A DNA stretch of 64,000 nucleotides from Phoronis australis (taxonomy: Eukaryota; Animalia; Phoronida): NCBI GenBank assembly GCA_002633005.1, contig NMRA01000006.1, positions 80,485 to 144,484 on the forward strand, read 5' to 3'. A program made the translations under genes and the position numbers. A model generated the notes under the pieces. It saw only the letters and a program-made list of their open reading frames with translations. It ran no database searches and had not been told where the DNA came from. Shown here in pieces: positions 26,457 through 55,510 of the stretch; position 1 is the first letter of the stretch, and the number at the start of each line of letters is the position of its first letter.

Positions 26457-29400
26457 ATGTCTCCAAAGAACTGCTGTGTCTGTGGTAAGAAGATAACAAA
26501 AGATCGTCTGCTGTGGTTAGTTGAACTTTTCCTTGAAAGTCATTTAAAGGCCCTTTCTCATATCGTTAACTTTGCTACAATCAAAGCTTCGATGTTAATT
26601 GTGGTTAATTTCAAATTTAATCATAAGTGTTTGCATCAACTTTGTATAGATTTTCATTTTTGGAAATGTCAGAAACTAAAAAAGACAACACCTCTAACTC
26701 GATTTGCAAAAGACCAGAATCAGCTCTGCTTTTCTGGCCTTAAAGGCGAAGGCAACCTTTTTCCATGTCATTTTGAGCTAAAATAAGGTTGGTTGGTTAT
26801 CCTAGACATATTTTTCACTTAATTACAGCTTTTCGTAATTTTATTAATTATTCGTCCGCTTTTCCGGAAGTGACGTTTTAGGAGGCAAGCGCTTCCCGCC
26901 AATTTCTTTTCACATAGTCTGACTGTGAGAGCTGCCGAGTCAGTCATTGTTCTACCTCGGTTGTGTTAAGTTCCGTCGTCGTTCGCTTTCATTTACTAGT
27001 CAGTCAACATGCCACACTGTTGCTGCGTACCGGGATGTAGTAATTATCGGCTCACGCGCGCTTTGGGAGTGCCTTTGCATCGCTTTCCGATGGATGACAC
27101 ACTTCGCCGTACTTGGCTCGTTCGTGTGAAGAACGCAGCGTTACCCGTCCACGCAACGTACAAAGCAGTGGAGAATTACCGTGTGTGTGGCAAGCACTTT
27201 CTGCCGTCCGATTACGAAAGGGATTTGTACGCTGAACTGATGAAGGTCCCCGCGAAACAACGCTTGAAGAAGGATGCCATTCCGTCTGTGTTGATTCCCG
27301 GCAGTGCCCCGTCGCCACCCCCGAGAAGTGCGTTTTTGAAGCGAGAAGCCTCGCGAGCTGTGGCCAGTACAGTGACTGGAGCCAGTGGAGGCACTTCATC
27401 TACTGTCACCCGTGCCTNNNNNNNNNNNNNNNNNNNNNNNNNNNNNNNNNNNNNNNNNNNNNNNNNNNNNNNNNNNNNNNNNNNNNNNNNNNNNNNNNNN
27501 NNNNNNNNNNNNNNNNNNNNNNNNNNNNNNNNNNNNNNNNNNNNNNNNNNNNNNNGCGACAATTGGTGAAAAATAGCACAAAACAAAAGTAGAATAGAAC
27601 AGATTCGCACAGTAAGCTCAACGCAAAACCAAGTGGCGGGAAGCGCTTGCCTCCTAAAACGTCACTTCCGGAAAAGCGGACGAGTAATTAATAAAATTAC
27701 GAAAAGCTGTAATTAAGTGAAAAATATGTCTAGGATAACCAACCAACCTTATTTTAGCTCAAAATGACATGGAAAAAGGTTGCCTTCGCCTTTAAATCTT
27801 AGCTCATTTTACTGTTCTTTATTCATATTGACATGCGATAGAATTTTTGTCTCGTGTAATGCCGGTTTTGAAAACACGTTTTGGTTCGTGTTTTTGTCCG
27901 TAACCATGTTTCTGTTCCTTAAAACCACCTGCAAATCCACCTTCTACCAAAAACTGAAATACGAGAATGGTCTTTCCTTAAGTGTGCATGCGCAAATGAA
28001 CGGTTGTACTTAATTGTTTTGTTTTTTTTCTTTTTGTACTTGTTTATAAATGATAATAAACACGTGGAAAAAACAAAAAAATGAAATTATAGTATTACTG
28101 TTATAAATCTGGTCTTGCCTTGTTCCTTACTCAGGTTAAAGGTGACCTGGATTGGGAATGACTGGAAGTATTTGTTAACCGTTGAGACCAAGCTTATGCT
28201 GTCAGTGCAAGTCGGGTTTTGCAACGGCAAAGCTTTTTGAAAGTGTCCATTGTGAACTCAGAAGTCATTTAGTCTTCAAGCTAAATTTTGCCTTGTTTAG
28301 CTGGCTAAATCATATTAGCTCTTCAACTCAGATAAAATCCATCTCATAATATACCTTACCATGATGGGATTTTTATTTCGGTTACCAACTCTGGTCACAG
28401 GCAATGCGTACATGCGCCATTTTTGCATTCACAATTTTAGGCCTAGCCAAACCCACTAAACTCTGAAGCGTTGTCTTGTGTCGCTCAGTGTTTTGATGTT
28501 TTGTTGGCAACACAATCGAACCTAATCATGGTAAGGAATGTTATGACTGAGGTTATGAAAAAGGTAAAACGCTGCAGCTCCGTTTTCACTGCTAAGCCCG
28601 TTGAAACGCAGCTTTAATTGAGGTGAGCAATAAGTTGACATCACTTTTGTGGAAATGGCAGTGTCCTCCACAACAGAAAATTCTAACTCGAGGGGAATTA
28701 CAAAATTCATAACCATGTTCGAAATTGTGTGCCTTTACTAAGGGGAGTTGGTATGCTAAGGCTTGGAGTACATGCATTTAACTGGAGCCAAAATGTCTTA
28801 ATGTGGTTTAATATGAAAAATCGTTTTCCAAAAGCTCAAATTTGTTGCGTAGATTTTCAAACTTGACTCGAGTAAGTGAAACTTGTCAAGGTGGAATTTA
28901 ACCTCGTTCATGCAACAAGTCGAAACAGGTTTTGGAGAACACTGAGTCGTGTAAATTAAAAGTTAGCTTATTTGACGGATGACGGTCTTACGGTAACTTT
29001 AATACGAATTTTCTCGTCATGATGGCTGGGTGGAAGCCGCATTCATTGTCCAGAGTCTCCCCTCATGACCGAGAATTAAAGGGAACTGGAACAGAAAGTT
29101 AGGAAGGAGGCTAGACCATTCTGTAATTAGAATTTTGCCATCCTAGTAGTCATAACCAGTAATTTTTGCCAGTACCCAACATGACACGGAAAACAGAATT
29201 TTGTCTGATTACTTTGGTCTTGTACTGTAATCAGTGCAGTGGGGTACTTTAAATTGCACATCTTATTTTGGTGAGTGTTGTAAATTATTGGTATTACTGT
29301 TGCAGCGTCTTCTGTTCTGCTGTCCAGTTTTGCAGTACCGCCTGTGAACGAACTGCCTCTCGGGATCTCTCCCAACATGGTCACGCCACCTGGTGCTCAA

Positions 29401-32400: not shown

Positions 32401-35315
32401 TTGAAAATGGAAAAGAGTCAATTCAGCATTTGTCCTGAATTGAAATTTTCTTACGGTAAAGTGGCGTGATTTTCGGACGGCCCGCCATTTTCGACCAAGA
32501 ATAAATATTTCCGAAATGAGTTTTTCATAGTCCACGAAATTCGTACAAGGTCCAAAAACTGTTTTTCAAAGATCCTCGAATTTCGGACATTGTCATAAAC
32601 ATCGGAATTTTGTCCCGCGACTTTCGGACAAGGAAACTTTAGAAACGGTAATTTGGGGTCGACGCAACTCCCGTGTCACTAAAGCGTTCAACGGATGATT
32701 ACTACTGTATAAGGCTTGAGTCCGAGAATAGGTATAACGGGTTTGTAATTTTTACCTTGTCTTGACGATGTCACGACCGTTACTCGATTGTCTTGCGTTT
32801 AGCTTGTGTTTGGCGCTTTAGCTATGAAAAGAATCACCGAGTTCCGCATAACGAAAATTTCTGATGAAAATACAAATAGGAAATACACCGAAGGCTGCAA
32901 CTTTTCGTTGTTGCGTAACATGTGCTCTGGTTTAAATAGGCCGTGCTGTTCGACTCCCGACTGTGACATTGAACATGCACGCCTGACATCAACTTGCGCG
33001 TTTACGAAACGTTTTTATTTTAAAACGTCCTGACCTTTGCAAATGCCCAACTATTGCTGGACAATAAGTTTTGCTGCCACTTACCCGCATCCCCGCGAAT
33101 GATTGAAATCTTCGTGAAGCCGTTCTGGGCTTGCTTAATAATTTTGAATGGGACAGTTAGCACCACTGACTAACATTCTGATAACGCAATTTTTGGGTTG
33201 AAACGAAAATTTTTCATTAAAAATCTGTTTGCAGTTCAAACGTCTTTCGTTTTTTAGTGTCTTCTTGGTAGTGCTCATTCGTGTAATGTGTTAAGCAGTG
33301 TAAGGCCCAGCACTCAGAACGGCGTGCTGGCGCAGTGCCGCACACGCAATTGCTACAGGGACACTGCATCCCCGCCTTATGTTGTGTATACTAAGTGCCT
33401 GTACTATAACACATATCAAAAACTAATGTACACCCACGTAACCACGCTTCACTACCCTTACAAATTCTCTTTCTCTGATAAGCATCACAGATGCAAGAAT
33501 CTCGCTAAAGAAGCTGGTGTGATCGTGTGCTTCGCTTGCAATACTTGACCATATGTCTCGAAGTCTTCAGACTAGCGTGCTCGTGAGATTCTCACCCTTG
33601 CGGCCCTGGACGAAGACTAGAGTAGAGTTCAGTAGCTGTCTTGGGAATAGAAAAATCTAGCCAAAATCACGTTTTCAACTGAAAATACACAATATGCCAC
33701 GTAATTTCACGAATTCTTGCTTTTTAGTGAAGTCCTTGCGTTACGAGCTTTACCCCTATGTAGACCTAAAAAAGATTGAATATGCAGCGACCTAATTTTG
33801 CTTGCTCATCCACTGGTCTGTGTACTTGTGGTCTTGTTAATTCGCGCCTTCTACCGTCTGAGGTACAACACCCTGGACTCCATGGTGTCCCAAGATTAAG
33901 ATGAATCCCGTTGGGAATTTTTGAAGTATACAGTAATCCAGAGAAATAGATTTGTAATTTTCATATCCTGTTGATCACTGCCAATACTAGTGTACTTATT
34001 TTAATGATTAATCATTTGTTGGTTTGTAGTCGCCACCAGTGCAAAGGATGTCATCACAATTGGAATTCTCGGAGTGGAGAAGGAGTGCGAGATGATAGCT
34101 ACGTTTTTTGTACGTATTGGTATCCCCTGAAGTTGATGTGCTTTCTGATAGACGTCCTTTAAGAGGAGGGGTTCAGGCATCAACGTGACAACTGATCACA
34201 TGGAACTGGATACTAGTGACCTCTAGAGGATGAGGAGGCATTTTCACTTTTGCTTAAAACACGTCATGTCTCATTGTGTACACCGTAAAACGAGGTCTTT
34301 TCACAAAGTCAAATACATTACCATATGCTACCCGTCGCAAAGAAGTACCTCCTTGTACATCCAGGTGGGGCTAAGAGTTGGTGGTCCCACGTGATGAGCC
34401 CCATCACTTCCTGTAATTGTCTCCCGTTAACACTGGTTGTTGGATTATTGGCTAGAGTAGGAGGGAACTTTTGAATGCTTTATAAAGCTCTGGTGGGTGT
34501 GAATAGCTAATAGCAAAAGTGTGTCAATGCAGACATGAATCAGTTATTAAAGGTATAGTCTCAAAGTTTAGTTAGTTTGTCAAAAAACAGACCTTTGTGA
34601 ACTATTGCAACAGCTGCCTAGAAGCACATTTCATAAATATTTGCTCTTTAATTGTGACCTGTAACTTCATTTTCTGTCTTCCAGTTAAATTGGGTATTAC
34701 CATTTTTGCAGCCAAAAACGCATTTTTTGGATTAGCGTTGGACTGGATAAACTTTTTGAGGTTATTAGTTTTGACTTGAGATATGGAACTACAAAATCCA
34801 TTGTTTTTGTGATTTTATTATAAATCCCTAAGTCTCCCGTTGTCTGCCAAACATTCGTTGAAATAAAAACTGGCTACTTTAACAGTTGTATTCTATGCTT
34901 ATAAAACTACCATTTGTCAAGAAGGTTTTAGCACTGCCGTCATAGTGTTAGGCAGCAACCATGGGATTCTAGGTTCGGATTCCACACTCGGGGTGTTCTC
35001 AGAAATTCATTTTTCTCACCGATAATGTCCTTTTAAAGCAAGCACCTTAGCATGCATTGTCCTTGCCATTATGTCAATCGCTTACAGGAACTTTCTCGGT
35101 TGAAACCCTCCTGGAACATCGGCATTCACATGTTCGGACCAGAAATTTCTGTCAAAATGGATGGCCTTGTAACCCGCTTCAACAAGCTAGCCATAACCGG
35201 GCACAGGACATTGTTTCACAAACATGGCAGCTGCAAGGCATTTGACTTTGTGCTAGGGTTCAACGCCGGCGTGGGAGCCTACGTGTCGTGGAACGATACA
35301 CTGAAATGTCTTAAG
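26457..35315 (+). CDS. ZMYND15: ZMYND15/MSS51-like MYND zinc-finger protein, six coding exons (26457-26515, 29306-29463, 30432-30563, 31628-31834, 34030-34109, 35088-35315), 288 aa, 3' end not found
   Basis: All introns are GT-AG and phase-compatible (2,1,1,1,0). Spliced product: MSPKNCCVCGKKITKDRLLCVFCSAVQFCSTACERTASRDLSQHGHATWC (complete MYND finger), then LAALPFTF, DWHSYYCARGFRLDSPISIVLQYVMTLYH, ILGVEKECEM, ELSRLKP..HMFGPEI, FDFVLGFNAG..SW. These match the ZMYND15/MSS51 motif order as I recall it; the symbol is a family-level call. Confidence 0.85.
27009..27417 (+). CDS. THAP-domain N-terminus of the Kolobok transposase (runs into N gap)
   Basis: MPHCCCVPGCSN..LHRFP..W..VCGKHF..RLKKDAIPS is the canonical C2CH THAP signature with an AVPT-like box. 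Confidence 0.9.
27418..27555. other. Assembly gap (138 N)
   Basis: N run seen directly. Confidence 1.
34935..35050 (+). mobile_element. tRNA-derived SINE relic; related copy at ~45840-46000
   Basis: B-box-like GGTTCG(G/A)AT followed by a shared body TCTCAGA(A/C)ATT..TCTC..CGA(T/C)AATGT(C/T)C(T/C)TTTAAAG in both copies. Confidence 0.45.
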
Positions 35316-36469
35316 GTGAGCAGAATTTCAAACGATTCGAATTGCATGAAATCTGCGCGAGTGTTTTTGTTGTTTTATTTTACTTAAGAATATATTATGT
35401 TTCTTCTACTGTTCCTTGTGTTAATAAAAGTGAGCACTGACTGCGTGCACCTAATTGTGGAGCTGCGCATGATTGCTGAAGCTAGGCGCATCCACGTATG
35501 TATGAGACATTTGAGTAGAACTTGCCCAATTACGGTATTTTGCATATATGGTGTTGATTTGCATAGAGTCCAAATGTAAGTCAAATAATTTGCATTAAAG
35601 CGTAATAGTGGTATTAAAGTAACATTTTAGATGGCGGAGATGTTACAATCAGGTCAAAAGGATTTCTTTGAAATAAAGAATTTTAAAACTTATTTTTAGT
35701 ATATTTTCATTACTTCAGGGCTTGGAATTTTCCGCGGAAACGCGAATTTCCGCTTTTTTCAAATGTTCTGTCCGCGTATTTTATTATATTTCCGCGTAAA
35801 AAAAATCGGATTTGATATAAAATTTCCACGGCAAATTTCTTTCTTACCGCCGTGTTGCCGACGACTTTCACCTCGAAAAGCGGAAGTTGCTCTTTATGTT
35901 TCGGAGGAACATAAATTGTCAACATTGCCGGGGCATCTGGGATAGCATGGTGGATTTCCTGAATGGCGGCTCATGTGATTGTAAACCGCAATGACAAATA
36001 CTACGACTCTGCTGCCAAAAACGTTTGGAGGTGGGAGTGGCAGACGAGCTAAGACAGACGCAGGCGCACGCTTCCGGAGGTGGTACCTTTTTTTTTTTGA
36101 TTTTTGTCGACAAAGGGTCCACACCGACTTTTTCAAGGCTGGCTGTGCNGTACAAATTATTAGAGCATTGACCGTACCTGAAGGACCTGGGCAAATCCCT
36201 TTAGACCAGTGTGATGCATGTGAAAGTAGATGCCTGTGTTCTTTGATTACGTTATCAGATAGTGGTTCAAGCTTGGATTCACAATATTCAATACATTTTT
36301 ACAACCCAAGCGAAATGGACGAAATTAAATTCAGGATTTCGTCTAATCTGTTGATCGGGGACAATATCAGCGGCTAGTCTCAAAAGTCCAAGATTGGTCA
36401 CTAGATTTACAGTAGTTCATGCGTCACAGCCACATTGGTGAGGTATGTTAATTTAAGTTCTTAAAAAGC

Positions 36470-37725
36470 CTACAGAGAGGTCTAAGGTCTTGGGCTTTCC
36501 GCCCATCAAAACGGTGATTCATACGAAAGCCGGCTGGCAATTCAAGACATATATTGTTCAACATGGCCTGTTACCTCGCGCAATGTGGGGCCTAATGCTT
36601 CAGAACATCCAAATATCTGTGGTTGACGCCCTGGAGAAAGCAATGGTTTAGGACTTTGGGATTCACCCAGTTTCACTCCGTTAAAGCAGACCAGCAGAGC
36701 TTAGCGACTTTTGACCTCAATGTTGGAGGAATTTCAAGTGGCAAAGTGGAGACTGGTTCTTACCTTGAAGGGCATTAGGGACTTGAAGGTGAGGGAGGGA
36801 GTATTCATGGCGGAAATTAGGGAGAGGATAGTCCGACCAGACACAGTTCAGTGAGTCATGTTGGAAATATGCTGCAGTTGGCCAAAGGAGAGCATCGGCA
36901 ACACCTGTGTCGAACTCCATGCAATTTAGATAGACAGCGAGAAGCAACAGAACGTGATTTTCCGAGCTAAGGCGAGAACATCAAATATAGGAACCTGGTG
37001 CAAGAAACAGGCGAAACCTTCCCGAGAGGAAGTTAACGTGAACAAATGTCTGCAGAATGGCTCTGATTCTTCTTCAATATCTACTCTGCTCAGTTTATGA
37101 CATGTTGCCTATACCGTCGGGGCTAGTGGACGACCCAACCTGTGTGGCGGACTGAAGTAGCCACGTTGCCCCATCTGGGTGTAAGACGACTCTTCCGTGA
37201 GGCCGATACAGATAGCGTCATTACCTAGTTTTGAAAACTTGCAGATGAAAAAGGTGCTGAGCAGAATGCGAAATCCCTAGGCAAGCAGTCATTCACTTCC
37301 TTACGGGGGGATGAACCAGGAAAGAAGACATCAGTAGCCATGCATATTGGATGGGTCTGCTAGACAATGTTGGTTGACCTGGAAAAGAAGTCCGTGTTTC
37401 CGATAGAGTGAAGACAACTCTTCGACCTGACTTGATCCTGTGTTCCGAAGCCAAGTAGCGTATAAGTATCTCGAATTTACATTTTCTTGGGAAGAATGAT
37501 GCTAGGAGGCCCCCGTGAGGAAATCATCAAATTACAGTAAGCTACTTGAGAAATGCGGAGAAAACGGGTGGCAAACATGGTTGATTCCTGTAGAAATGGA
37601 ATGCACAGGGTTCCGTACTGGGTCCGCGGTTGCTGCAGAAGCTTGGCGTGCGAGTGAGCGCAGCATTGAGAAGGGTGGGTGAAATGGTGGAACAACATAT
37701 TGGGTGTGGTAGCGCCGTATTGAAG
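36470..37725 (+). mobile_element. 5'-truncated, degenerate HERO-type non-LTR retrotransposon (post-RT region and restriction-like endonuclease)
   Basis: Across frameshifts and stops: QHGLLPR.MW, EEFQVAKWRL, SVYDMLP.P, TTLRPDLILCS, LEFTFSWEE, RKSSNYSKLLEKCGENGWQTWLIPVEMECTGF. The last matches the RLE consensus RPD..ELTVPWE..RK..KY..GW....PVEVGCRGF. Confidence 0.8.
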
Positions 37726-38251
37726 GGACATTACGGTGTTTTCCCATTGCTCCCAACTTGTTCGATTCTATAGCCCTACAACAAGTTGGGAAGTTTACTC
37801 CTGTAGCCAATATCTTACACGACTGATTAACTCCATTCTGGTATTTATTGTTGGAGGGCCGGCTCTCTTTTGTTCGATAATTGCTCTAATCTCCGATCAG
37901 ATTATGTCTAGTCTGACTGGGCTGTGCTGCTAAAAATGAAAGTTAACTTATAACATATTCGAACATAAACCAATAGCATTTCTGAATTCCTTGTCAAATG
38001 CTGATCATGCTTAGTTTTTGAATCACCAAAATCGCCCAACTACAACAGAAGTTAAGACAATCCATTCTGCCAGGTTTCGCTAATTATAAACCTTTGAAGC
38101 CTGGCAGATAATTGGCCTGCTTGTTGTCATACGGTACAAAAGACTGTGCTGGGCAGTTAACAAAGGAGTCCGATGTTATCGCACGTTCAGAACCCCTCAC
38201 CCCGTCTGGAAAAGTTGCTGAACGACAGAACGCCGTCATGGGTAACATACG

Positions 38252-38257
38252 TTTATT
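38252..38257 (-). promoter_or_regulatory. Candidate polyadenylation signal of the NTase-TPR gene
   Basis: AATAAA on the minus strand ~340 nt after the stop codon. Confidence 0.4.
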
Positions 38258-38593
38258 ACGCAAAAAACAGTGACAATGTAATACATTCCCAAGTCCGTGT
38301 TAAACGCGTAACTCTGACCAATCAGCAAACACGTGATAGATGTGTCCCGCACATTCCTAAGCGCTCCGTAGTGCCATTATGGTCATGTCTAAACGCCCTA
38401 CAAATCTACAATACTGCATGGGTTGGAAATACCAAATAGTCCACCATACTTATTCCATAGAGCCTCAGTCTGCCGTCAGGGACACTCCTGAAACACAGAT
38501 ATTAAGTTTGTTTGATTTTCATCAACAATTCAAAGGTTCATTTGAACGTCAATTACAGCAAAATGACCACGAAGCTGTCCCTTTCCAGAAAAA

Positions 38594-41500
38594 TTACGTT
38601 ATTCTGCTGTACAAAACAGTGTCTCCTCTTTTCATGTGAAATTCTCGCACTTTGTCACGTATCTTCTCCACGTCTGGGTGCTCACTGGTGCCACGTAGCT
38701 TCATCATTATCTCTAATGCCCGTTCGTACTCCTTTATCGCCTTCTCTAAGTCACCTTGGGCAGCATAGGTGGACCCAATACACTTCAGGACGAAGACGAT
38801 GTCCTCGTGTTCTTCGCCTTTGTGTAGTCGCTGACTCATCGCAAGCGATTCGGCAAATTTGTTTAAAGCTAAGTCAAACAACTTCACCATTTTGTAGATA
38901 TTTCCAGTGTTGTTTAACATGGTCACAATGTCCGGGTCGTCGTTTCCTTTGAGTAGGCGCTTCTTCATGCTTATTGCCTGGTTGTAGCTCTTCGCTGCGG
39001 CATCAAGCTGCCCGTTATACAGACTCAATCCACCTACGTTTTTCAATGACTCTACTACGTCAGTGTGGTCGCAGTCCCCGTGTAGACGTTTGTTGATTTC
39101 CAATGCCTCGGTGTAAACATTCAAGGCTTTCCCTATCTCTCCCTTCATTGTATGTATGGCGCCTATGTTATTCATGGTATCTAAAACACTCTCGTGGTCT
39201 CTTGTTCGGTACAACCTGTCTTGCATCTCGAGAGATTGTTGAAAATACGTCAGCGCACTGTCGTGATCTGCTAGTCTAAATGAGAGACTGCCGAGATTGC
39301 CCAGAGTCCTCACAGTGCTGCGATGGTCTTTGTTAGCTCGTACTCGTTTTTCCATCTCAAGAGATTGAGAGTAATAGTCAATAGCTGTTTTACATCTACC
39401 TATCTTACTAAAGGCCTCTCCTATTGAGTAAAGCGACTCAACAACATCCATGTGGTCTTTGTCAGCACACAACCTTTTTATCATTTCCAAAGATTTGAAA
39501 TAAAAATCAAAAGCCTCTGTTGTGTCTCCTTTGAGTAACCACACGTCTCCCATGTGTTTCAGAGACGCCGCGACGTCTTTATGGTCTTCCTCTTTAAACA
39601 GCGTCTTCCGTATTTCAAAGGACTGTTTGGTGTATTTTTTAGCATGTTCGATATTTCCAGTCGCAACATTTAACAGCCCAAGCTTCTCCAAAGTCTTAGC
39701 TACTGCGTGATTGTTGCCGTCTGGAAATATTTGTCTGTTCATCAGCAATGCTTCTTGGAACCTTTGTTCTGCTAAACTCGTCTGACCCATTATCTGGTAA
39801 AGGGTGGCTACGTTTTGAAGTCTGCCAACCAAGATTGGATGAGCTACGTCTTTGTATAAGCGTTTTGCCATTTCCAAGGAATCTTCACAATACTTCAATG
39901 CCAAATCGAACTTGCCGATGTACTGATACACAATTCCTATATTATTCAATCTCGCTTCCTTCTTTCTATGGTCTCCTGGCCCAAAAAATGTTTGCGTCAG
40001 TTTGAGACATTCGTCATAGTATTCCAACGCCAGATCAGGATCTTCTTTGTAAATAGTTCCAGCAATATTGTTTAGACACGACTCCAGGTTGGGATGACCG
40101 TTTATGCCATAAAACTCCCTCATAATGCGCTGTCCTTCTGTGAAGTATTCCAAAGCTGCTTTATGTTCGCCTTTCTCGCACAATACGCAGCCAATGTTAA
40201 CTAATGTTCCTGCAATGTCTGGGTTGTCTTCACCCGACTTTAATTTCCTCTGTATTTCAAGAGACTGGTTGAAGTACTGCATCGCTAGTTCAGTTTCTTG
40301 CATTTCTTTGAACACCGATCCGATGTTTTCCATAGCTGCTGCGACCCCGAGATGGTCATCAGTCTTATGAATATTTTTGGTCATTTCCAATGACTCGAAA
40401 CAATAACGCAGCGCTAATTCGTAGTTGCCCAATTCAAGATACGCTAAACCAATGTTGTTCAAGCAGGACGCTATCAGCGGGTGTTCGCTGCTGCTAATAA
40501 CCCTTTTCATCATTTCAAGGGCATCTTCGTAGTACTTCACTGCTATTAGCCACTGACATTTATCCTCGTATGCGCCCCCTATACTGGTTAACGCCGCAGC
40601 AATGAGTGACGAATCGAACTCTGTGTCTCCTTGAATACGCCTCATCATGTCTATGGATGCTGTTTGATATTTTATCGCCTCGTCCGGTCGCCCTTTGTCT
40701 CTGTATATTGCTCCAATTATTTGAAAAGATGCACTGATAACGACGTTGTCATCGTCAGGATATAGTCGTCTCATCATGTCCAAGGCTGCGTTACCGCGGC
40801 TTAGGGCTTCGTCCAGTCTGCTCTGTTTGGCCAGATCAACGGCTATGCTGTTCAGGTACTTGGCAATCCATGGATGGTCCTGGTCACCTTGAATTCTTGT
40901 CATCATCTCCAGAGATTCGGTTACGTATTTCAAGCCTAGATCCGCCGAACCCATTTCGCTATGTATTTGACCAATAATAAACATAGACGCCACAATTGCA
41001 GGGTGATCGTTGCTGCTGTGTAACGACTCGTGAACTTTATGGGATGCTTTCAAATATTTCAAAGCTTCTTCGAATTCGCCCTTTTCTCTATGAGCACTTG
41101 CAATGTTGCTGAGGCATGCTGCAACATCTCCGTTGTTTTCATCTCCATAAACACGTTTCATTATGGTGTGAGCTTTTTTGAAATGCTCAATAGCTTCATC
41201 AAACTGTGATTTTTCCACAAGTGTAGTGCCAATATTTGTGAGACAAACCGCCAGAAGGCGTTCTTGACTACGATCACCGAGTCTTGTTATCATCAGCAGA
41301 ACATCGTTATAATATTTCAATGCGAGGTCAAAGTCGCCAATTTCTTCATAAATGCTGCCAAGATTGTTAAGGCATATTGCAACCTCCAAATGATCTCCTT
41401 GATATATTACTTTGTTTACCTCACAAGCCAATTGACAGTAATCTAAGGCTTGCCTAAGACGTCCCTCGCGCTGGTAGGTTTCCTTTATCTGGCTCAAGCA

Positions 41501-43251
41501 TTTTGAAACAAAGCAATCCTTAGCATCAAATAAGACGTCTTTTCCTTTGTAGCATATTTTTCGCGTGTTACACAATCGTTGCTCTTCCGGTCTTAATTGC
41601 TGCCAAGAGCGCTCAATGCAGGAAACAAATTTGTCTCGAGCTGTTTCAAATGATAGGCACTGGAGCTCAATGGACGCCACATAATATTCATCCTCATCAT
41701 AAAAAGAGTCTGGAATACATTCTTCTGATAAACACGTATCCACCTCAAGGTTGGCGAAATAATTGCACAGTGGCTGCATTGTAAAGTAATAGCGGAATAC
41801 AAGTGGCTTTACGTTCTTGAAGTTTGTCGCAGTCGCGCTATTTTTCTGCTTGCTGTCATCGGCTGGGCGTGCCGTTAGAATACTTATGAGCTCGTTTTGA
41901 TGAGATTTATCTGCGTAAGTTAGCAGTCTCATCAGCGCCACGAGAGAAACGATGAATTTTAAGTTGTGCGAACCTTCTTCAGTCAGTTTCCCCTTTGAGT
42001 ACATTTCATCTAAAATGTCCCAAGAGTTGTCACTTTGTAAGCAAAATACCGTTTTGAATAAGCTGACTATCAGCGTCGGCATGCGATACATGTCTTGCTT
42101 AATATCGTGCACCGTTCGAGTGTCCTTGTGAAAGGACAGTTTGGGGTAGAACTGGTGAATCAGCTCTTGTATCTCCTTTAACGCCTTTTCTCTCATGACT
42201 GTTTCGCTTTTATACTTGGCTCTAGCAGCGACAAACACGTCAACCAGTTCGTCTGCGTTCTTGCTTCCGTCCACTTTCACCGACGTTCCCATTATTCTAT
42301 CAATATTATTACCCTCTGTCGCAGCTGTCTTCTCCTCGCATAGCATTGCCATGTGCTGGGGGGTTCTGATTAGTTCTCGTCCCGGTTTATCAGGACGCGC
42401 TGGACGTCCAACAGGAGTGTTACAAGCATACGGGGCTGCGCTATCGAACTGAAACCCTCTAGGTGCAACGGTATCCATGAACCAATGACCACCGGGTGTG
42501 TCGTAATCATGTAATGACTTGATATTTAAAGACTTCAAGAGCGTTTCGCCAATGTTCAGTACAAACATATGAACCATTCGCGTCAGATTCCTGAAGTACT
42601 CAATCTCCTTTGTCTCATCTTCCACCAAAATGCACCACTCCAAGTCGGAGAATGGAGTTGTGTCCCCTCTTGCTAGAGATCCCAAAGCCAGCGCTGCATA
42701 CTCCTGTGGTGGCTCTCCTACTATTTCTTTACTCAACGTAATCATGCGCTCAATCAGTTCCATCAATTCCTTACACATGTCATCAAACAGACTTTGAATG
42801 CCTTCTATCAGGTCTTTTTCTAGAAGTATTCTTTCCGATGTTGGGAGACCCAAATCAAAGCTCTTTTCTATTCGATCTAACAACTCGGCGGCTCTATGCC
42901 TCGTGTTTGTCCTTATTTGATTTAACGTTTCCTTAAACTCAAATCTAAAATCTGATGGGTGCTTATCAGGTCTAACACAGAGTACTTTACAAAATGACTT
43001 CTCGTTTCTGTTAATCAAGTGATGAAGCTCCTTAGCAAACCCGTCAATCTTAGTTCGCAGGAGAGCTGCATTGTAAAGACCCCCGGCCCACACAAAGTGC
43101 TGAACACGCTTCGTCAAAATTCCTAGCTCTTCATGAACCTCCCCCAGTTCCTTTAAGATGCCTGCCTCTCTCTCCAAATCTTTACGCGAGTCTTGAATGA
43201 GAATGAGGGCTAGCTCATCCTCTCTGGCAAGCAATGATGCTACCTTGTCGT
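38594..43251 (-). CDS. Main 4.66-kb exon of a DUF294/GlnD-like nucleotidyltransferase + 22xTPR protein
   Basis: Acceptor tttttgtttatttttgtag then phase-1 AC GAC AAG. NTase motif YAALALGSLARGDTTPFSDLEWCIL (core 42682-42638); helical substrate-binding-like region DIKQDMYR..SWDILDEM..MRLLTY; 22 kinesin-light-chain-type ~44-aa TPRs (HP.vA..LnNiG..Y...G....Al.yy..aLem) over ~41510-38640. Confidence 0.92.
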
Positions 43252-43886
43252 CTACAAAAATAAACAAAAATATTCTACAGTACAGGCCAAAAGCATTTGG
43301 ACAAAACGAATTCGTCGTCAGCGTAGTCTTCCCTCATGACCGAAAACGAAGTGAATAAACAGGAAAGCTAGAAAGATGGCTAATTCATCATGTAAAGTTT
43401 ACTGTTAACAGAAATGGTCGTTATGACGGGGAAACGGTATTTTGACTGAATATTGAAAAGTTCTTCATACACAGTCAATCAGTCATTTAAAAGAATACTA
43501 AAACCTGATTTGATGATTTCAACCAATCTTAGTTCTGTCACCTGCTAATGCATCATTGTCGTCTTTCTTGAAAGATAAAAGCAGGAATCAACTAAAAGCT
43601 CGTACTCTCTATTTCACAGATTGGATATTACATTCCTTGGTGGGTGGTCTTTTCCCTCAGTTGCCGTGTAATTCGCTAAAAGCGTAGGCCACGTTTGCCC
43701 GTATACTAGACTTTGAAAGGAGGTTTCAAATTTTCCTACAAACCTTTGAGGGTAATCGAGGGTTAGAGAGCATTATTTTGTTTCAGAGAACTAGACGGGG
43801 AAAGTCGTTTGTAGTAGCTTTTAACCGGGTTTAGTATCCTTTTAACGTTTTCAGTTATGGTTCTAAAACCTTTGTCAAGCAAATGA

Positions 43887-44059
43887 CGTTGTGAGTGGGT
43901 TGGACGAGTGGCGCCATCCTCCTGCAGGAATAGAGACATCGGCCTGTATACCTTGCCTAATATGTGCGGCCTTGCAGCGCACTAGAAGCTGACAAGCGGG
44001 CTGATAGGTTTCCCCACGTCCTATAAGGATAACGTCACTCGTCCAACCCACTCACAACA
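43887..44059. mobile_element. 173-bp MITE in the intron of the NTase-TPR gene
   Basis: ~33-bp TIR GTTGTGAGTGGGTTGGACGAGTG(G/A)CG..ATCCT; TGA flanks both sides. Confidence 0.8.
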
Positions 44060-45032
44060 TGATGCAGCCGATTTCATGATGGTGTTTCAAAGTTAAACCT
44101 GGTTTAAATTGGACATATACCAGGTTTAAAAATAAGCGCTTTTTTAGCAATTTTGCTTATGGACATTTTAAAAACTTTTACTATCAATAAAAATCTCAAA
44201 AAGAATTCAATAATTGAATAATCCTGACACGTGGCAATTGTTCTTCGCAGCATTGACGACTGGTTAACACAAACATTTTGGAAATCGGGGGACGCAGCAA
44301 AAATAATCGAATCTGGTACACGCATTTTTTTCTTTAAGCTTGCCTTTTTTGTAGACGATCAAGACACCTGTTGCAGAAGGAAGCAAATCTTTCATGCTTA
44401 CGATCTCCGTGGCTCTTAACAATCTGTTTTTTGTCGTTCTCTTGTCAAAAATAGCCAACAAATATGGCAGTAAATGTGTCATGTTTTAGCGAATGGCAGC
44501 TGAAGATTCGATAGTTGATGTATATCTATACGGTGTTACATTTTATGTAATAAAACTATTAAAGGAGAATGCGACTCGATTTCGTTAGTTCTCAGTTTGT
44601 ACACTTCGTTCGCGTTCAAAGCTGAACATCGATTAGTTTTGGCAAGAATTATTTTACATTAGTAACTTTTCTTCAGTGTATTAGGTTTTATATTGGTCTA
44701 AATTGCGATTGATTTTTGCAGTTATGAAGCCTCAATGTCACGTGACTTCCAGTAAAGCTGCTAAAAATCTGGGCTCAGCTGGTTTGTCACTCAGTTCGTG
44801 ATTGTATGAGACCATGTTTGTAGCAAAAAATGACCCCGTGAAAAGCCAATTTGTTGATTATGGTCTCGAGTGGTAACGAACTGTCAGTTCTCTGCAAGCC
44901 AGAAACTATATTTAATCTCAGAAAGGAAAGAGTTGAATTTGTAAGCGGTCTAAATCAAATGGGCTATTGCATCTTCAATTGGCATGACACTTATGTCGGA
45001 AGGTACTGCACATCCCAAGGCATTTGTCTTAC

Positions 45033-45084
45033 CATTTACACTTGATGTTTCTTGCTTTACCCTGGACTCGGGAACTGCCTCCAT
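45033..45084 (-). CDS. Predicted first coding exon of the NTase-TPR gene (MEAVPESRVKQETSSVN + G)
   Basis: ATG in good Kozak context (aatATGG) with an in-frame upstream TGA; 52 nt ending G|gtaaga is phase 1, matching the phase-1 acceptor at 43251; upstream acceptor ttttctccttttag at ~45133. Confidence 0.7.
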
Positions 45085-52037: not shown

Positions 52038-54761
52038 TCATTCCGCCACTCCCACTACGCGTTTCTTCACCGCATATACTGCCGCAGCTACAGTAATGAT
52101 TAAAACAATGAAACCCAGTCCGGTTGGTAACGCGTACGCGAGGACGGGTAAGTTGTTTTCCGGCTTGTTAAACGGGAGATGTTTAATGGACATTCTAAAC
52201 CCCTCTCTATTGTGAGCTTCGCACACTATCACCCCCACCTGCTTATGAGACCGGTTCCACGGTATTTCCAATGTGCCTACTGTTACTAGCTCTGACATAT
52301 TTGAGCTGGCCATGAACTCTTTCATTTGTCCTGACGGCGCAAACATTTTGATAGTTGCAGCGGGTTCGCCGGTAGACCAACAACTGACGCGTATCGTTTG
52401 GTCATCTACGACAACGAAACTGATATTTGGGGAAGAAGGTTTCATGCAGACAAGCGGAACATTGAGGAATTCCTCGATTGTGGCACTGGTCGCAACAGGC
52501 GAACTGCATCCTGGTATGCTTACTAGTTTCCGATTCCCGGCAGCTCGCCTCGACATCCATTTCTGCAATTCTTCCAGATGGCAATTGCAATGCAGAGGGT
52601 TGTTATTAAACAAAAATGTCTTAAGAAATGGTCCCTTCACCTTTTCAATGAAAGAACTCGGTAACCTCTGAAGTTCATTATTGTCAACATTAATTTGTTC
52701 GAGATTCACGCTAGATAGAAGACTGTCATCCATAAGTCTAACATTGTTTGACGACAAGGAGACTACTTTTAGACGATGAAGCGATTGTAATGTTTCGGAC
52801 TTAATTTCTTCGATTTGGTTGTGGTCCAGGAATAAGTAATCCAAATGAATTACACTCGAAAAGGCATCGTCGTCTATAGTCTTGATCTTGTTATTGGTAG
52901 CCCTAAGCTTACGCAGTGGGTATGGATAGCCAAGAGCCCACCACCTCCCAATTGTTTTTAATTGGTTGTTGTTCAAATACAATTGTTCCAGAGTTTTTAG
53001 CTCGCTGAAAGTGGAGTCTTCGACAACTCGAATGTCATTAAATGATAGATCAATGAGCTTTACGGATTCTAGTTTTCGAAACCAGTTTCTGCAGATGACA
53101 AAAATTTTGTTGTGGCTTAAAAATAAACGTTTTAAACTTTCCAAATCATCAAAGGCGCCAATTTGAATTTCAGTTATCCAGTTGTTTCCTAGGTGTAGAG
53201 TTGAAAGCAATTTCAAGCCTTCAAACGTCTTGTTGGTCACGAGCGCGATTTTGTTCCTATTAAGTTTAATAACGCTAACTGTGTGATTGAGAAATGCACC
53301 GTCTTCCAGTTCAGCAATGTTGCTATCTGACAGGTCAATATCATTCGAATGAACGTTGCCAAGAATCTGTCCCGATAATATCAACGTTTCATTACCCGTG
53401 TATCTTATATGAACTTCTTGGGCACGGAGAGAATTTGAAAATGCGGCCCGGTCACGTGATGAGTATTCTACCTCTATGAGTCTGCCATACAATTCCGGAA
53501 GTTGCGATAGCGAGTGGACAACTATTTTCATGCTATATAAATTCTTACAAGAGGCAAATGCGTCCTTTGGAATTACCGATAAACGACTGAAACTAATAGT
53601 AATGAAAATCAGCTCAAACAAAAATTTGAATTGATCAGTTTTCAAGTTGTTGATCTTATTACCATTTAGTGTCAAACCACGTAGCTCCCTCTGATGGTAA
53701 AATACATTCTTATGTATATCTTCAATATTGTTATCATTCAAATACAAGTTTTTGATCTTTGGCAGGTCACTGAAGATTCCTTCAGACAAAGTCGTCAGTG
53801 CGTTATGCGACAAAAACAGGCTGTCCATGGAACGGGCACTCACCCAACCGTCTTGGATCTCCGATATGATGTTGTGAGATAAATGTAGAGTGCGCAACAA
53901 TGGAATGTCACTAAACATGCCCTTGGTTAAGCAGCGAAGTTTGTTGTGACTTAGGAAAAGTGTCTTTAGTTGCGGCGTGGGATGAAAGGCACCAGGAGCT
54001 ATGACGTCAACGTTGTTTCCTGTTAGCAGCAGGGTTTGCAGACGTGACAATCCTTTGAACGTTGAGTTTTGGATGGACTGTATTCTGTTGTGTCTCAGAT
54101 CTAGGTATGCCAACGATGCAAGATGGACAAACTGATTTCCATGAAAGAGATCCAAGTCGTTGTTATGCAGTTCGAGCCGTGTCACCAGCTTCAAACCATT
54201 TATGGCTTCATTGTCCATGATCTGAATCGCGTTGTCACCGAGAGCTACGTTTGTGATAACGTTGGAGTGATTAAAGATGCCGCGAGTTATCTTCGAGAGC
54301 CGATTTCCTGTAAGGAAAATGTGCGTTAAGGATGGCAAGTATGATAGACACTTAACTGGCAACGACGTTATGTAATTCCCCGTCAAGTATAAGAAAAGTA
54401 GACTTGTGAGACCGGCAAACGTCTTTTCGGCCACGTGAGTTATTCGATTTTTTGACAAATCGAGACATTCTAAACCTCTAAGGTGAACAAACAAATTGTC
54501 TGGAATAACGATGATTTGATTTTTACTGAGATCGACCACGCGAACGTTCGACAAGTTGGTCGGCGGAGTTTCTAGAAAGGCATCTTGCTCAATTCGGCGA
54601 ATGTCACAGTTATGCAGGAGAATGTCGTCTGATTTATCACAAGCCTTTTTCACTATGTCTGCGGTCAGCGTTGTGGTCTGATCCGGATTAAGAGATTTGC
54701 ACGCAAGTGTTTCCACGCACGTCGAATAGAGTAAAACGGCGAACCATATCGGTAAAATCAT
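52038..54761 (-). CDS. Single-exon LRR-LRRCT-Ig-transmembrane receptor (LRRIG/LIG type), 907 aa
   Basis: Signal peptide MILPIWFAVLLYSTCVETLA; ~25 extracellular LxxLxLxxNxIxxI repeats; LRRCT NPLHCNCHL..W..GCSSP; Ig-like VSCWSTGEP..LEI..GVIVCEAHN; TM VLAYALPTGLGFIVLIITVAAAVYAV; KKR stop-transfer and a 9-aa tail. Confidence 0.95.
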   Translation of the reverse strand: MILPIWFAVLLYSTCVETLACKSLNPDQTTTLTADIVKKACDKSDDILLHNCDIRRIEQDAFLETPPTNLSNVRVVDLSKNQIIVIPDNLFVHLRGLECLDLSKNRITHVAEKTFAGLTSLLFLYLTGNYITSLPVKCLSYLPSLTHIFLTGNRLSKITRGIFNHSNVITNVALGDNAIQIMDNEAINGLKLVTRLELHNNDLDLFHGNQFVHLASLAYLDLRHNRIQSIQNSTFKGLSRLQTLLLTGNNVDVIAPGAFHPTPQLKTLFLSHNKLRCLTKGMFSDIPLLRTLHLSHNIISEIQDGWVSARSMDSLFLSHNALTTLSEGIFSDLPKIKNLYLNDNNIEDIHKNVFYHQRELRGLTLNGNKINNLKTDQFKFLFELIFITISFSRLSVIPKDAFASCKNLYSMKIVVHSLSQLPELYGRLIEVEYSSRDRAAFSNSLRAQEVHIRYTGNETLILSGQILGNVHSNDIDLSDSNIAELEDGAFLNHTVSVIKLNRNKIALVTNKTFEGLKLLSTLHLGNNWITEIQIGAFDDLESLKRLFLSHNKIFVICRNWFRKLESVKLIDLSFNDIRVVEDSTFSELKTLEQLYLNNNQLKTIGRWWALGYPYPLRKLRATNNKIKTIDDDAFSSVIHLDYLFLDHNQIEEIKSETLQSLHRLKVVSLSSNNVRLMDDSLLSSVNLEQINVDNNELQRLPSSFIEKVKGPFLKTFLFNNNPLHCNCHLEELQKWMSRRAAGNRKLVSIPGCSSPVATSATIEEFLNVPLVCMKPSSPNISFVVVDDQTIRVSCWSTGEPAATIKMFAPSGQMKEFMASSNMSELVTVGTLEIPWNRSHKQVGVIVCEAHNREGFRMSIKHLPFNKPENNLPVLAYALPTGLGFIVLIITVAAAVYAVKKRVVGVAE

Positions 54762-55510
54762 CTTAATTCGCTAACTGCGCTAATTGTTCTTTATGTAGTC
54801 CAATAGCCACAGTGTCAACGTGAATGCGTCTGCCCAGTTAAGAAACAAAGCATACGGTAAAACGTCACATTTTATAATTTACGCTACAGGGTGTGCTGAC
54901 TATAGGTGGGTTAGTTCTGTAAGTCATTCATTAGTAGTCACTTCTTCAAATCTAGTCTGCAGTTTGAGGCAATTGATTTGGACTCTTTTCTTGTGAATAG
55001 GTATCATTATAGCAGTTTTCCAAACATTAGGATATGTTCATGTTTGCAGTATTTTATTTAACAAACGAGTGATTGGCAGAGACAAGTGCTTAGCAATTAG
55101 ATTAATTACTTTGTTTGTTATATAGTTGGTGTCGTCACTTTTAATTACGTAAATATTTCTGCTATCTGAACAACTTCTACAGCTGACACTTGAAAATCTT
55201 ACAATTTGTTTGGAGTGTTTCTGAACGCCAGTGAGTACTTTGGCGGAGTTGGTAACTGGCTCTTATTTGTGAAGTAATCCAAAAGAGCTGACATTTTCGG
55301 TACTGTGCTTGGCTATTGCCGTCTTGAGAGTTAATGACAAGATTAGGGGTTTGGTTTGTGTATTTCTCGCAATTTGTTTGTAATATTAAAATATAAAAAA
55401 TAATTGCAGGTGGTCTGATACACGTTGTACCAGACGTGCGCAGGCCTCGCATGTGGGCCCACTGCACTGATCACCTGGAAATATTTTTATGCTTTATTAA
55501 TATATGGTTA

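Follow-up and report, generated by a model that had tools for sequence, protein, structure and literature searches.

The question raised by a gene on the minus strand of a 64,000-nt stretch of the Phoronis australis genome (assembly GCA_002633005.1, contig NMRA01000006.1, positions 80,485 to 144,484; hereafter the window, in its own numbering) is what an animal might do with a bacterial-type nucleotidyltransferase (NTase) fused to a long array of tetratricopeptide repeats (TPRs). An earlier note had read the product from the sequence alone as a DUF294/GlnD-like enzyme switched on by a TPR sensor, a candidate for immunity. The gene, which is transcribed, spliced and likely from an animal, belongs to a large undescribed family of NTase-TPR proteins of the DrrA type, and its predicted structure points to the transfer of nucleoside monophosphates to proteins (NMPylation). 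Residue numbers are those of the 1569-residue spliced product.

Predicted fold and nearest solved enzymes

A structure model of residues 130-484, built from 78 sequences, confidently predicts the Pol-beta nucleotidyltransferase fold (predicted local distance difference test, 90.1; predicted template modelling score, 0.88). Its best Foldseek match is DrrA (E 3.3e-9), followed by GlnE (6.1e-8 and 2.3e-6) and kanamycin nucleotidyltransferase (KNTase; 9.5e-4), with the CD-NTases far lower (CdnE, E 0.58; CdnG, E 0.64). VIA-align superimposes 273 residues on chain 6yx5_B of DrrA (Z 23.4, root mean square deviation 3.2) and gives Z 19.4 and 18.8 with GlnE (1v4a and 3k7d_A), the next unrelated entry scoring below 9; an earlier, poorer model gave the same ranking against 48,161 chains. 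From sequence alone, the family profile has DrrA as its best PDB match (E 1.3e-4), in an alignment that pairs the GSLA-x4-T-x-YSD motif and, within the helical lobe, the K..R and R positions, and it aligns with the AT domain of E. coli GlnE over 229 columns (probability 70%); the sole PDB match of the single sequence is an aminoglycoside nucleotidyltransferase (ANT; E 2.1). By the model, the closest known enzyme is DrrA/SidM, then GlnE; it is neither GlnD nor cGAS/OAS.

Profile searches agree in part with the earlier assignment to a DUF294/GlnD-like group. The DUF294 half stands, since Pfam DUF294 (PF03445) passes its cut-off (33.8 bits against 21, E 3.5e-8, profile positions 30-98 of 138); the GlnD half does not, GlnD models of NCBIfam reaching 13-15 bits against cut-offs of 519-631, and the nearest enzymes being DrrA/SidM and GlnE. 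No GlnE model of NCBIfam matches at E<=0.1. NTP_transf_2 is under its cut-off, and one bacterial relative passes that of SidM_N (score 28.9). The DUF294_C profile (PF10335) has no match in the Phoronis protein, the model of which contains a helical lobe of the same clan, and matches the relatives P0154, L004, P0166 and P0168.

Several observations weigh against placing the enzyme with DrrA and GlnE: identity to DrrA is just 15-17%; SidM_N scores 18.7, below its cut-off of 27; the superfold is shared with the small-molecule transferases KNTase/ANT (VIA-align Z 6-7, deviation >6) and with the oligonucleotide synthase HalB (Z 5.8); and an insert of about 29 residues beside the active site, with no counterpart in GlnE, could alter the acceptor. 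Two other activities have to be considered. A TPR-gated synthase of cyclic or linear oligonucleotide second messengers, which would join cGLR and OAS as a third branch and which the earlier note had offered as an alternative to NMPylation, is improbable. The Pol-beta catalytic motif is, as generally known, common to cGAS and OAS; variable TPR arrays in the family are sensor-like; the insert could form a second nucleotide pocket; and cGAS-like domains are fused to TPRs in oyster (PMC8195603). Against these stand the CD-NTases at E of about 0.6 as compared with 3e-9 for DrrA, the absence of any Mab-21, SMODS or OAS profile match in Pfam at E<=10, and the scanned bacterial loci, in which no conserved neighbour of receptor or effector type was found. 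Because the two nearest solved enzymes, DrrA/SidM and GlnE, are both protein tyrosine AMPylases, a protein acceptor is suggested, which makes NMPylation of proteins a better reading than synthesis of a nucleotide second messenger. Still less probable is a small-molecule NTase resembling KNTase/ANT, which would detoxify or activate a metabolite and use its TPRs as a scaffold: such enzymes form the next tier of structure matches and NCBIfam gives weak matches to ANT(4') and Lnu(F), but their Z values compare poorly with the 19-23 of the protein AMPylases, long TPR arrays would be superfluous, and the F-box and OTU fusions of Neochlamydia homologs (the NEX2 proteins, described below) point to protein targets.

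Catalytic residues

The Pol-beta superfamily motif hG[SG]-x9-13-[DE]h[DE], reported earlier as hhGS-x9-SDhE, is present as GSLARGDTTPFSDLE, and the other motifs noted with it (RGFQFD, DIKQDMYR and MRLLTY) are likewise in the translation, the last two in what the model shows as a HEPN-like C-terminal lobe, which had been described simply as helical. Conservation among 185 domains is nearly complete for G208 (184), S209 (183), D220 (182, with three E), E222 (183, with two D) and D287 (184), and high for the basic residues K402 (170/173), R407 (165/171) and R459 (164/167). The third acidic ligand suggested in RGFQFD is likely D287, the placement of which is approximate: GFQFD, just after the insert, aligns automatically at the strand of GlnE D753 with the register shifted by a few residues. 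The corresponding triads are D110/D112/D150 in DrrA and D701/D703/D753 in GlnE (PMC7815794). With the added loci included, D220/E222/D287 are acidic in 220 of 222 domains, the exceptions being one gapped sequence and one with a broken GS motif; the family is therefore likely catalytic. Catalysis would depend on this triad and the three basic residues.

The insert, with its own conserved residues (Table 1), is a candidate substrate-contact element. GlnD/GlnE/DUF294_C and DrrA are counted among inactive HEPN-like domains (PMC3710099), and the Rx4-5H motif of HEPN RNases is absent from the Phoronis protein and from 181 of the 197 sequences that have the conserved R.

Gene structure and expression

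The reading frame of about 1569 codons, first described as intact, is divided between two exons (17+1+1551 residues; Table 1). The minus-strand frame at 38594-43333 has 1579 open codons; the donor GTAAGA follows exon 1 after 45033, and an AG acceptor stands just before 43251. RNA shows the joint 43251/45033 (CT..AC on the plus strand, GT..AG on the minus) in a single contig from run X1 and a single read from X2. Three raw-read runs (X2, X3 and X4, of 12.8, 11.3 and 11.0 million records) place 105, 115 and 23 reads on the coding exon, covering 29, 28 and 18 of 30 bins of exon 2; first mates are mostly on the plus strand, consistent with a minus-strand transcript under common stranded protocols. 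Expression is low in all three, with counts that differ 4-5 fold between runs. The gene is thus real, spliced and transcribed.

It is very improbable that the gene is dead, a bacterial contaminant or recently transferred. The gene is nearly intronless and has homologs in intracellular bacteria; its spliceosomal intron is nevertheless used in RNA and its allelic single-nucleotide polymorphisms (SNPs) have a synonymous excess, which contradict such an origin, its surroundings are gene-poor with THAP, LRR-Ig-TM and MSS51-like coding pieces (below), and it groups with amphioxus proteins (SH-aLRT 97) and no bacterial sequence. An animal gene is likely from the intron, the low gene density of the window and the THAP and LRR-Ig-TM neighbours.

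The protein is likely cytosolic. As the earlier note had it, there is no signal peptide, transmembrane (TM) segment or NTPase motif: the highest 19-residue hydropathy over residues 18-1569 is 1.17, exon 1 has no hydrophobic stretch on direct reading, and a Walker A motif was not found in the protein. Pfam also shows no NACHT or NB-ARC in the rows inspected (25 of 33 for the protein scan) or in the scan of the enzyme region, and no F-box in residues 18-551. The N-terminus, correctly described as helical, is a module conserved in the family, the first ~100 residues of which resemble TPR-like hairpins.

Table 1. Features of the Phoronis NTase-TPR gene (window coordinates).
Feature	Position	Strand	Remarks
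Coding exon 1	45033..45084	-	ATG at 45084; 52 nt = 17 codons + 1 nt; splice joint in RNA
Single GT-AG intron	43252..45032	-	1781 nt; contains dispersed repeats
Coding exon 2, residues 18-1569 and stop, uninterrupted	38594..43251	-	
N-terminal helical module, residues 18-129	42917..43251	-	TPR-like hairpins; precedes the enzyme in many homologs
DrrA/GlnE-type nucleotidyltransferase, residues 130-484	41852..42916	-	Pol-beta head and helical lobe; predicted model
Catalytic motif G208-S209...D220-x-E222	42638..42682	-	Conservation over 185 domains
Family-specific insert, residues ~250-277	42473..42556	-	Conserved E253, T254, W274, D277
D287 of GFQFD, likely third metal ligand	42443..42445	-	Conservation and GlnE alignment
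Helical substrate-binding lobe, HEPN-like fold	41873..42205	-	Conserved K402, R407, R459
22 TPR units of ~43 residues, TPR_12/TPR_10 type	38660..41509	-	Repeats mutually diverged

Family members and origin

A word-based protein search finds 16 proteins, 14 of them from Branchiostoma, at 25-34% identity; an exhaustive search finds 1577 clusters at E<=1e-3, of which 1102 reach 1e-10 and 234 reach 1e-30; the best 150 of the 1577 were analysed. ESM Atlas clusters nearest to the Phoronis protein consist of DUF294 proteins. A 185-domain tree unites all 14 named amphioxus proteins in one clade of 80 members, the rest of which are assumed to be from amphioxus; the expansion in amphioxus given in the earlier note is thereby supported, as is the presence in amoeba-associated bacteria. 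Bacterial members come from Neochlamydia S13, Candidatus Jidaibacter acanthamoebae, and chlamydial and gammaproteobacterial metagenome-assembled genomes (MAGs). A Neochlamydia S13 copy is 27% identical over 81% of the query, and homologs lie at 11 places on one 231-kb record (pS13; L005); the retrieved copy sits amid insertion sequence elements. The 50 NEX2 proteins of Neochlamydia, with DUF294 and TPRs, in most members an N-terminal F-box and sometimes OTU, are putatively host-directed (PMC4209131); F-box and OTU domains have host proteins as their targets. Metagenomes contribute 36 loci out of 93 pattern matches, labelled as bacteria-like, transcript-like or gene-poor eukaryote-like from the density of open reading frames (ORFs) and the neighbours; 20 pattern matches in viral contigs include no relative.

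In a tree of 148 of the 222 domains, which omits most of the amphioxus clade, pieces shorter than 230 residues and four near-duplicates, the Phoronis protein lies inside a group of 87 sequences (SH-aLRT 93) with no bacterial member. Among the 44 labelled sequences it groups, on a long branch, with amphioxus and one transcript-like set; its closest relative is 37% identical, and one-to-one orthologs were not found. A single origin of all 28 eukaryote-like sequences is not rejected in this unrooted tree (p-AU 0.61). The family shows lineage-specific bursts and varies in copy number and repeat number, and within its bacterial range the module forms large effector-like families in intracellular bacteria. 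It would be an old acquisition from bacteria living inside eukaryotic cells; a bacterial donor is suggested because the range of GlnE, DUF294 and DrrA is bacterial, the tree having no root.

Further paralog sets occur in gene-poor eukaryote-like DNA as intronless frames (L022-L035) and in transcript-like contigs (L007-L017), several frames being interrupted, as in birth-and-death families. NTase domains are paired, within one protein or across neighbouring genes, in P0037, P0080, P0022, P0097, P0094, P0127, P0068, P0059 and L002; the two copies of P0037 (Jidaibacter) belong to different subclades, as do those of P0080. No division of two-domain proteins into adenylylating and de-adenylylating halves is seen, both copies retaining T at the class-specific position. 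Fusions with a PGRP-type amidase, ankyrin, EGF, UBA, AMP-binding/thioesterase and guanylate kinase domains are seen in P0170, P0052, P0127, P0121, P0133, P0173 and P0013, some of the eukaryotic ones possibly being gene-model joins. In one gammaproteobacterial MAG (L001:3725-5812) a zeta-toxin-like gene stands directly upstream of a homolog, with transposases on either side.

Comparison with known systems

DrrA/SidM (PDB 6yx5, 3nku; SidM_N PF20879) is the best fold match across both lobes and has in common with the Phoronis protein the GSLA-x4-T-x-YSD motif, the acidic triad and the basic residues of the helical lobe. It acts in the eukaryotic cytosol, where the Phoronis protein is predicted to reside, being encoded by the eukaryote itself. 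The latter differs in the spacing of its second and third acids (65 residues against 38), in lacking the Rab1 guanine nucleotide exchange factor and phosphatidylinositol 4-phosphate-binding (P4M) domains, and in having the N-terminal helical module and 22 TPRs. In a 2015 survey, Legionella pneumophila alone had DrrA-like proteins (PMC4454073). GlnE (GS-ATase; 1v4a, 3k7d) has the same two-lobe NTase (Z ~19), whereas the Phoronis protein has a single NTase domain without the AR/regulatory/AT layout of GlnE and without HD or ACT domains; the family has T where GlnE carries the class-specific G697/N169, in addition to its insert. Compared with DUF294 proteins, the Phoronis protein passes the PF03445 cut-off without a CBS or cyclic-nucleotide (cNMP) domain; with Neochlamydia NEX2 it shares the core of DUF294 and C-terminal TPRs, without F-box or OTU. 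NEX2 is described by domain labels, and neither DrrA nor animals are connected with it, in the accessible part of PMC4209131. The enzyme would work like DrrA and GlnE but belongs to neither family.

The animal AMPylases FICD/HYPE and SelO perform the modification that is predicted here, and FICD likewise pairs TPRs with an AMPylase; these have unrelated folds, are single-copy and reside in the endoplasmic reticulum or mitochondria, whereas the family described here is expanded and predicted to be cytosolic. Fungal NLRs and the coral expansions of TPR-CHAT and GT1-TPR likewise combine an enzyme with a variable TPR array, and relatives of the Phoronis protein vary on the groove side; the Phoronis protein differs from these systems in having no STAND NTPase, an NTase as effector and no internal repeat conservation.

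The TPR array and selection

The count of 22 TPRs is upheld: the units span residues ~599-1548 with a period of 42-45 residues, mostly 43. They average 25% mutual identity and are not homogenised. The 156 single-domain proteins have 0-25 C-terminal repeats, counted with a profile built from the Phoronis repeats, which undercounts other TPR types, many entries being fragments. Mean internal identity exceeds 45% in 34 of the 59 proteins with at least six scored repeats, and variability among these 34 peaks at positions 2, 9, 12, 13 and 31. Groove positions were assigned by canonical TPR numbering. In 27/27 proteins of the amphioxus clade and in 7/7 others, positions 2, 5, 9, 12 and 13 are more variable than six positions of the outer face, this groove set having been fixed after position variability was seen and positions 6 and 16 not being variable there; receptor-like variation of the array is supported at family level (34/34 relatives with internally similar repeats). 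It resembles that of fungal NLR TPRs, for which the identity threshold is 85% (PMC4986451), much stricter than the 45% used here.

The Neochlamydia copy (L005) has 22 scored TPRs that are 64% identical to one another and vary at the groove positions. Between its repeats, nonsynonymous differences per site (pN) are 0.36-0.45 at groove codons against 0.14 elsewhere, with synonymous differences (pS) of 0.39-0.61 (183 non-independent pairs); groove pN is below pS, and there is no formal positive selection in this copy. Because the groove varies in a bacterial copy too, such variation marks changing protein recognition, which is not necessarily immunity.

For the Phoronis gene itself the evidence weighs against a role in conflict. 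Besides its repeats, which are not homogenised, the 49 allelic differences listed (25 replacements and 24 silent, 22 of the silent ones within the TPR region) give a pN/pS of about 0.3, indicating purifying selection, and only 5 of the 25 replacements fall at the 7 of 43 positions taken as groove, against 4.1 expected, so that no excess of change on the groove of this gene is seen; the X1 entries of the list are limited to the best-supported rows, and coverage is thin and cannot detect single-site selection. Reads at 85-95% identity number at most four per run, and no close expressed paralog is seen in RNA. A protein NMPylase domesticated for a constant host target, as in trafficking, cilia or the cytoskeleton, and with no immune role, is accordingly a serious possibility though short of an even one, and is compatible with the proposed enzyme activity: purifying selection without groove excess, diverged repeats, the lack of close expressed paralogs, the long branch with a best identity of 37% and low expression all favour it, whereas the absence of one-to-one orthologs, the lineage-specific bursts with varying copy and repeat number, the variation of read counts between runs and the thin SNP coverage speak against it. 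The gene looks like an old, stabilised member of the family.

Proposed mechanism and biological role

On balance, the most likely reading is a cytosolic protein NMPylase of predicted DrrA/GlnE fold, the TPR groove of which would select the target or bind an activator. Mg-ATP or another Mg-NTP would be held by the GS loop together with the triad and the three basic residues; a hydroxyl of the target protein, probably of tyrosine, would attack, and the nucleoside monophosphate would become attached to it. The insert and the groove of the TPR array may provide specificity, much as the TPRs of FICD determine the substrates of that AMPylase (PMC8065156); alternatively, a bound ligand may activate the enzyme, as in DrrA, which is switched on allosterically by a protein ligand at its back face (PMC7815794).

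Across the family, the proteins may well act in host-microbe conflict: a conflict or immune role has about an even chance for the family, and for the Phoronis gene a lesser one, of about one third. A fuller proposal, possible but doubtful, is that of a marine-invertebrate family of immune receptor-enzymes, taken once from intracellular bacteria, in which a rapidly diversifying TPR groove would recognise a microbial or damaged-self protein and the DrrA-type domain would AMPylate either the recognised protein or a host switch protein.

Neighbouring sequences

The minus strand also has, some 7 kb upstream of the gene, an uninterrupted frame of 910 codons (52038-54770) for an LRR-Ig membrane protein, which begins with a signal-peptide-like segment, contains many leucine-rich repeats (LRRs) and one Ig-like domain, and has a TM-like stretch at its C-terminus. 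The plus strand has an ORF with a THAP domain at 27000-27569 (E 1.8e-15) and a coding piece similar to the MSS51 C-terminal domain at 35037-35387 (E 1.6e-9); 41 of the 43 short ORFs of the window have no Pfam match, and there are no tRNA genes in the 64 kb. Within the intron, a 38-nt inverted repeat flanks 105 nt (43883-44063) in the manner of a miniature inverted-repeat transposable element; this part and 37500-38350 are taken as dispersed repeats because many reads match them partly.

Significance

No description of the animal family was found in the literature searched, outside which lie supplements and subscription papers; supplements by the Aravind group (PMC3710099, PMC3482391, PMC8195603) may list it. 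It is not mentioned in the accessible parts of PMC8195603, PMC3482391 and PMC12314368. The animal AMPylases named in a 2021 review are Fic enzymes and SelO only (PMC8097203), and a review of 2025 treats GS-ATase and SidM as bacterial enzymes (PMC12409994). If the predicted activity is true, the family would be a third class of animal AMPylases beside Fic and SelO, and its more than 1000 sequence clusters, which include animal genes and would combine the DrrA fold with an intact active site, would show where the DrrA enzyme domain has relatives; the enzyme is directly testable as one soluble domain of 355 residues. If the variable TPR arrays are sensors, they would bring a new effector chemistry to invertebrate immunity, and if the immune proposal is true, the family would represent bacterial effector chemistry converted to animal defence.

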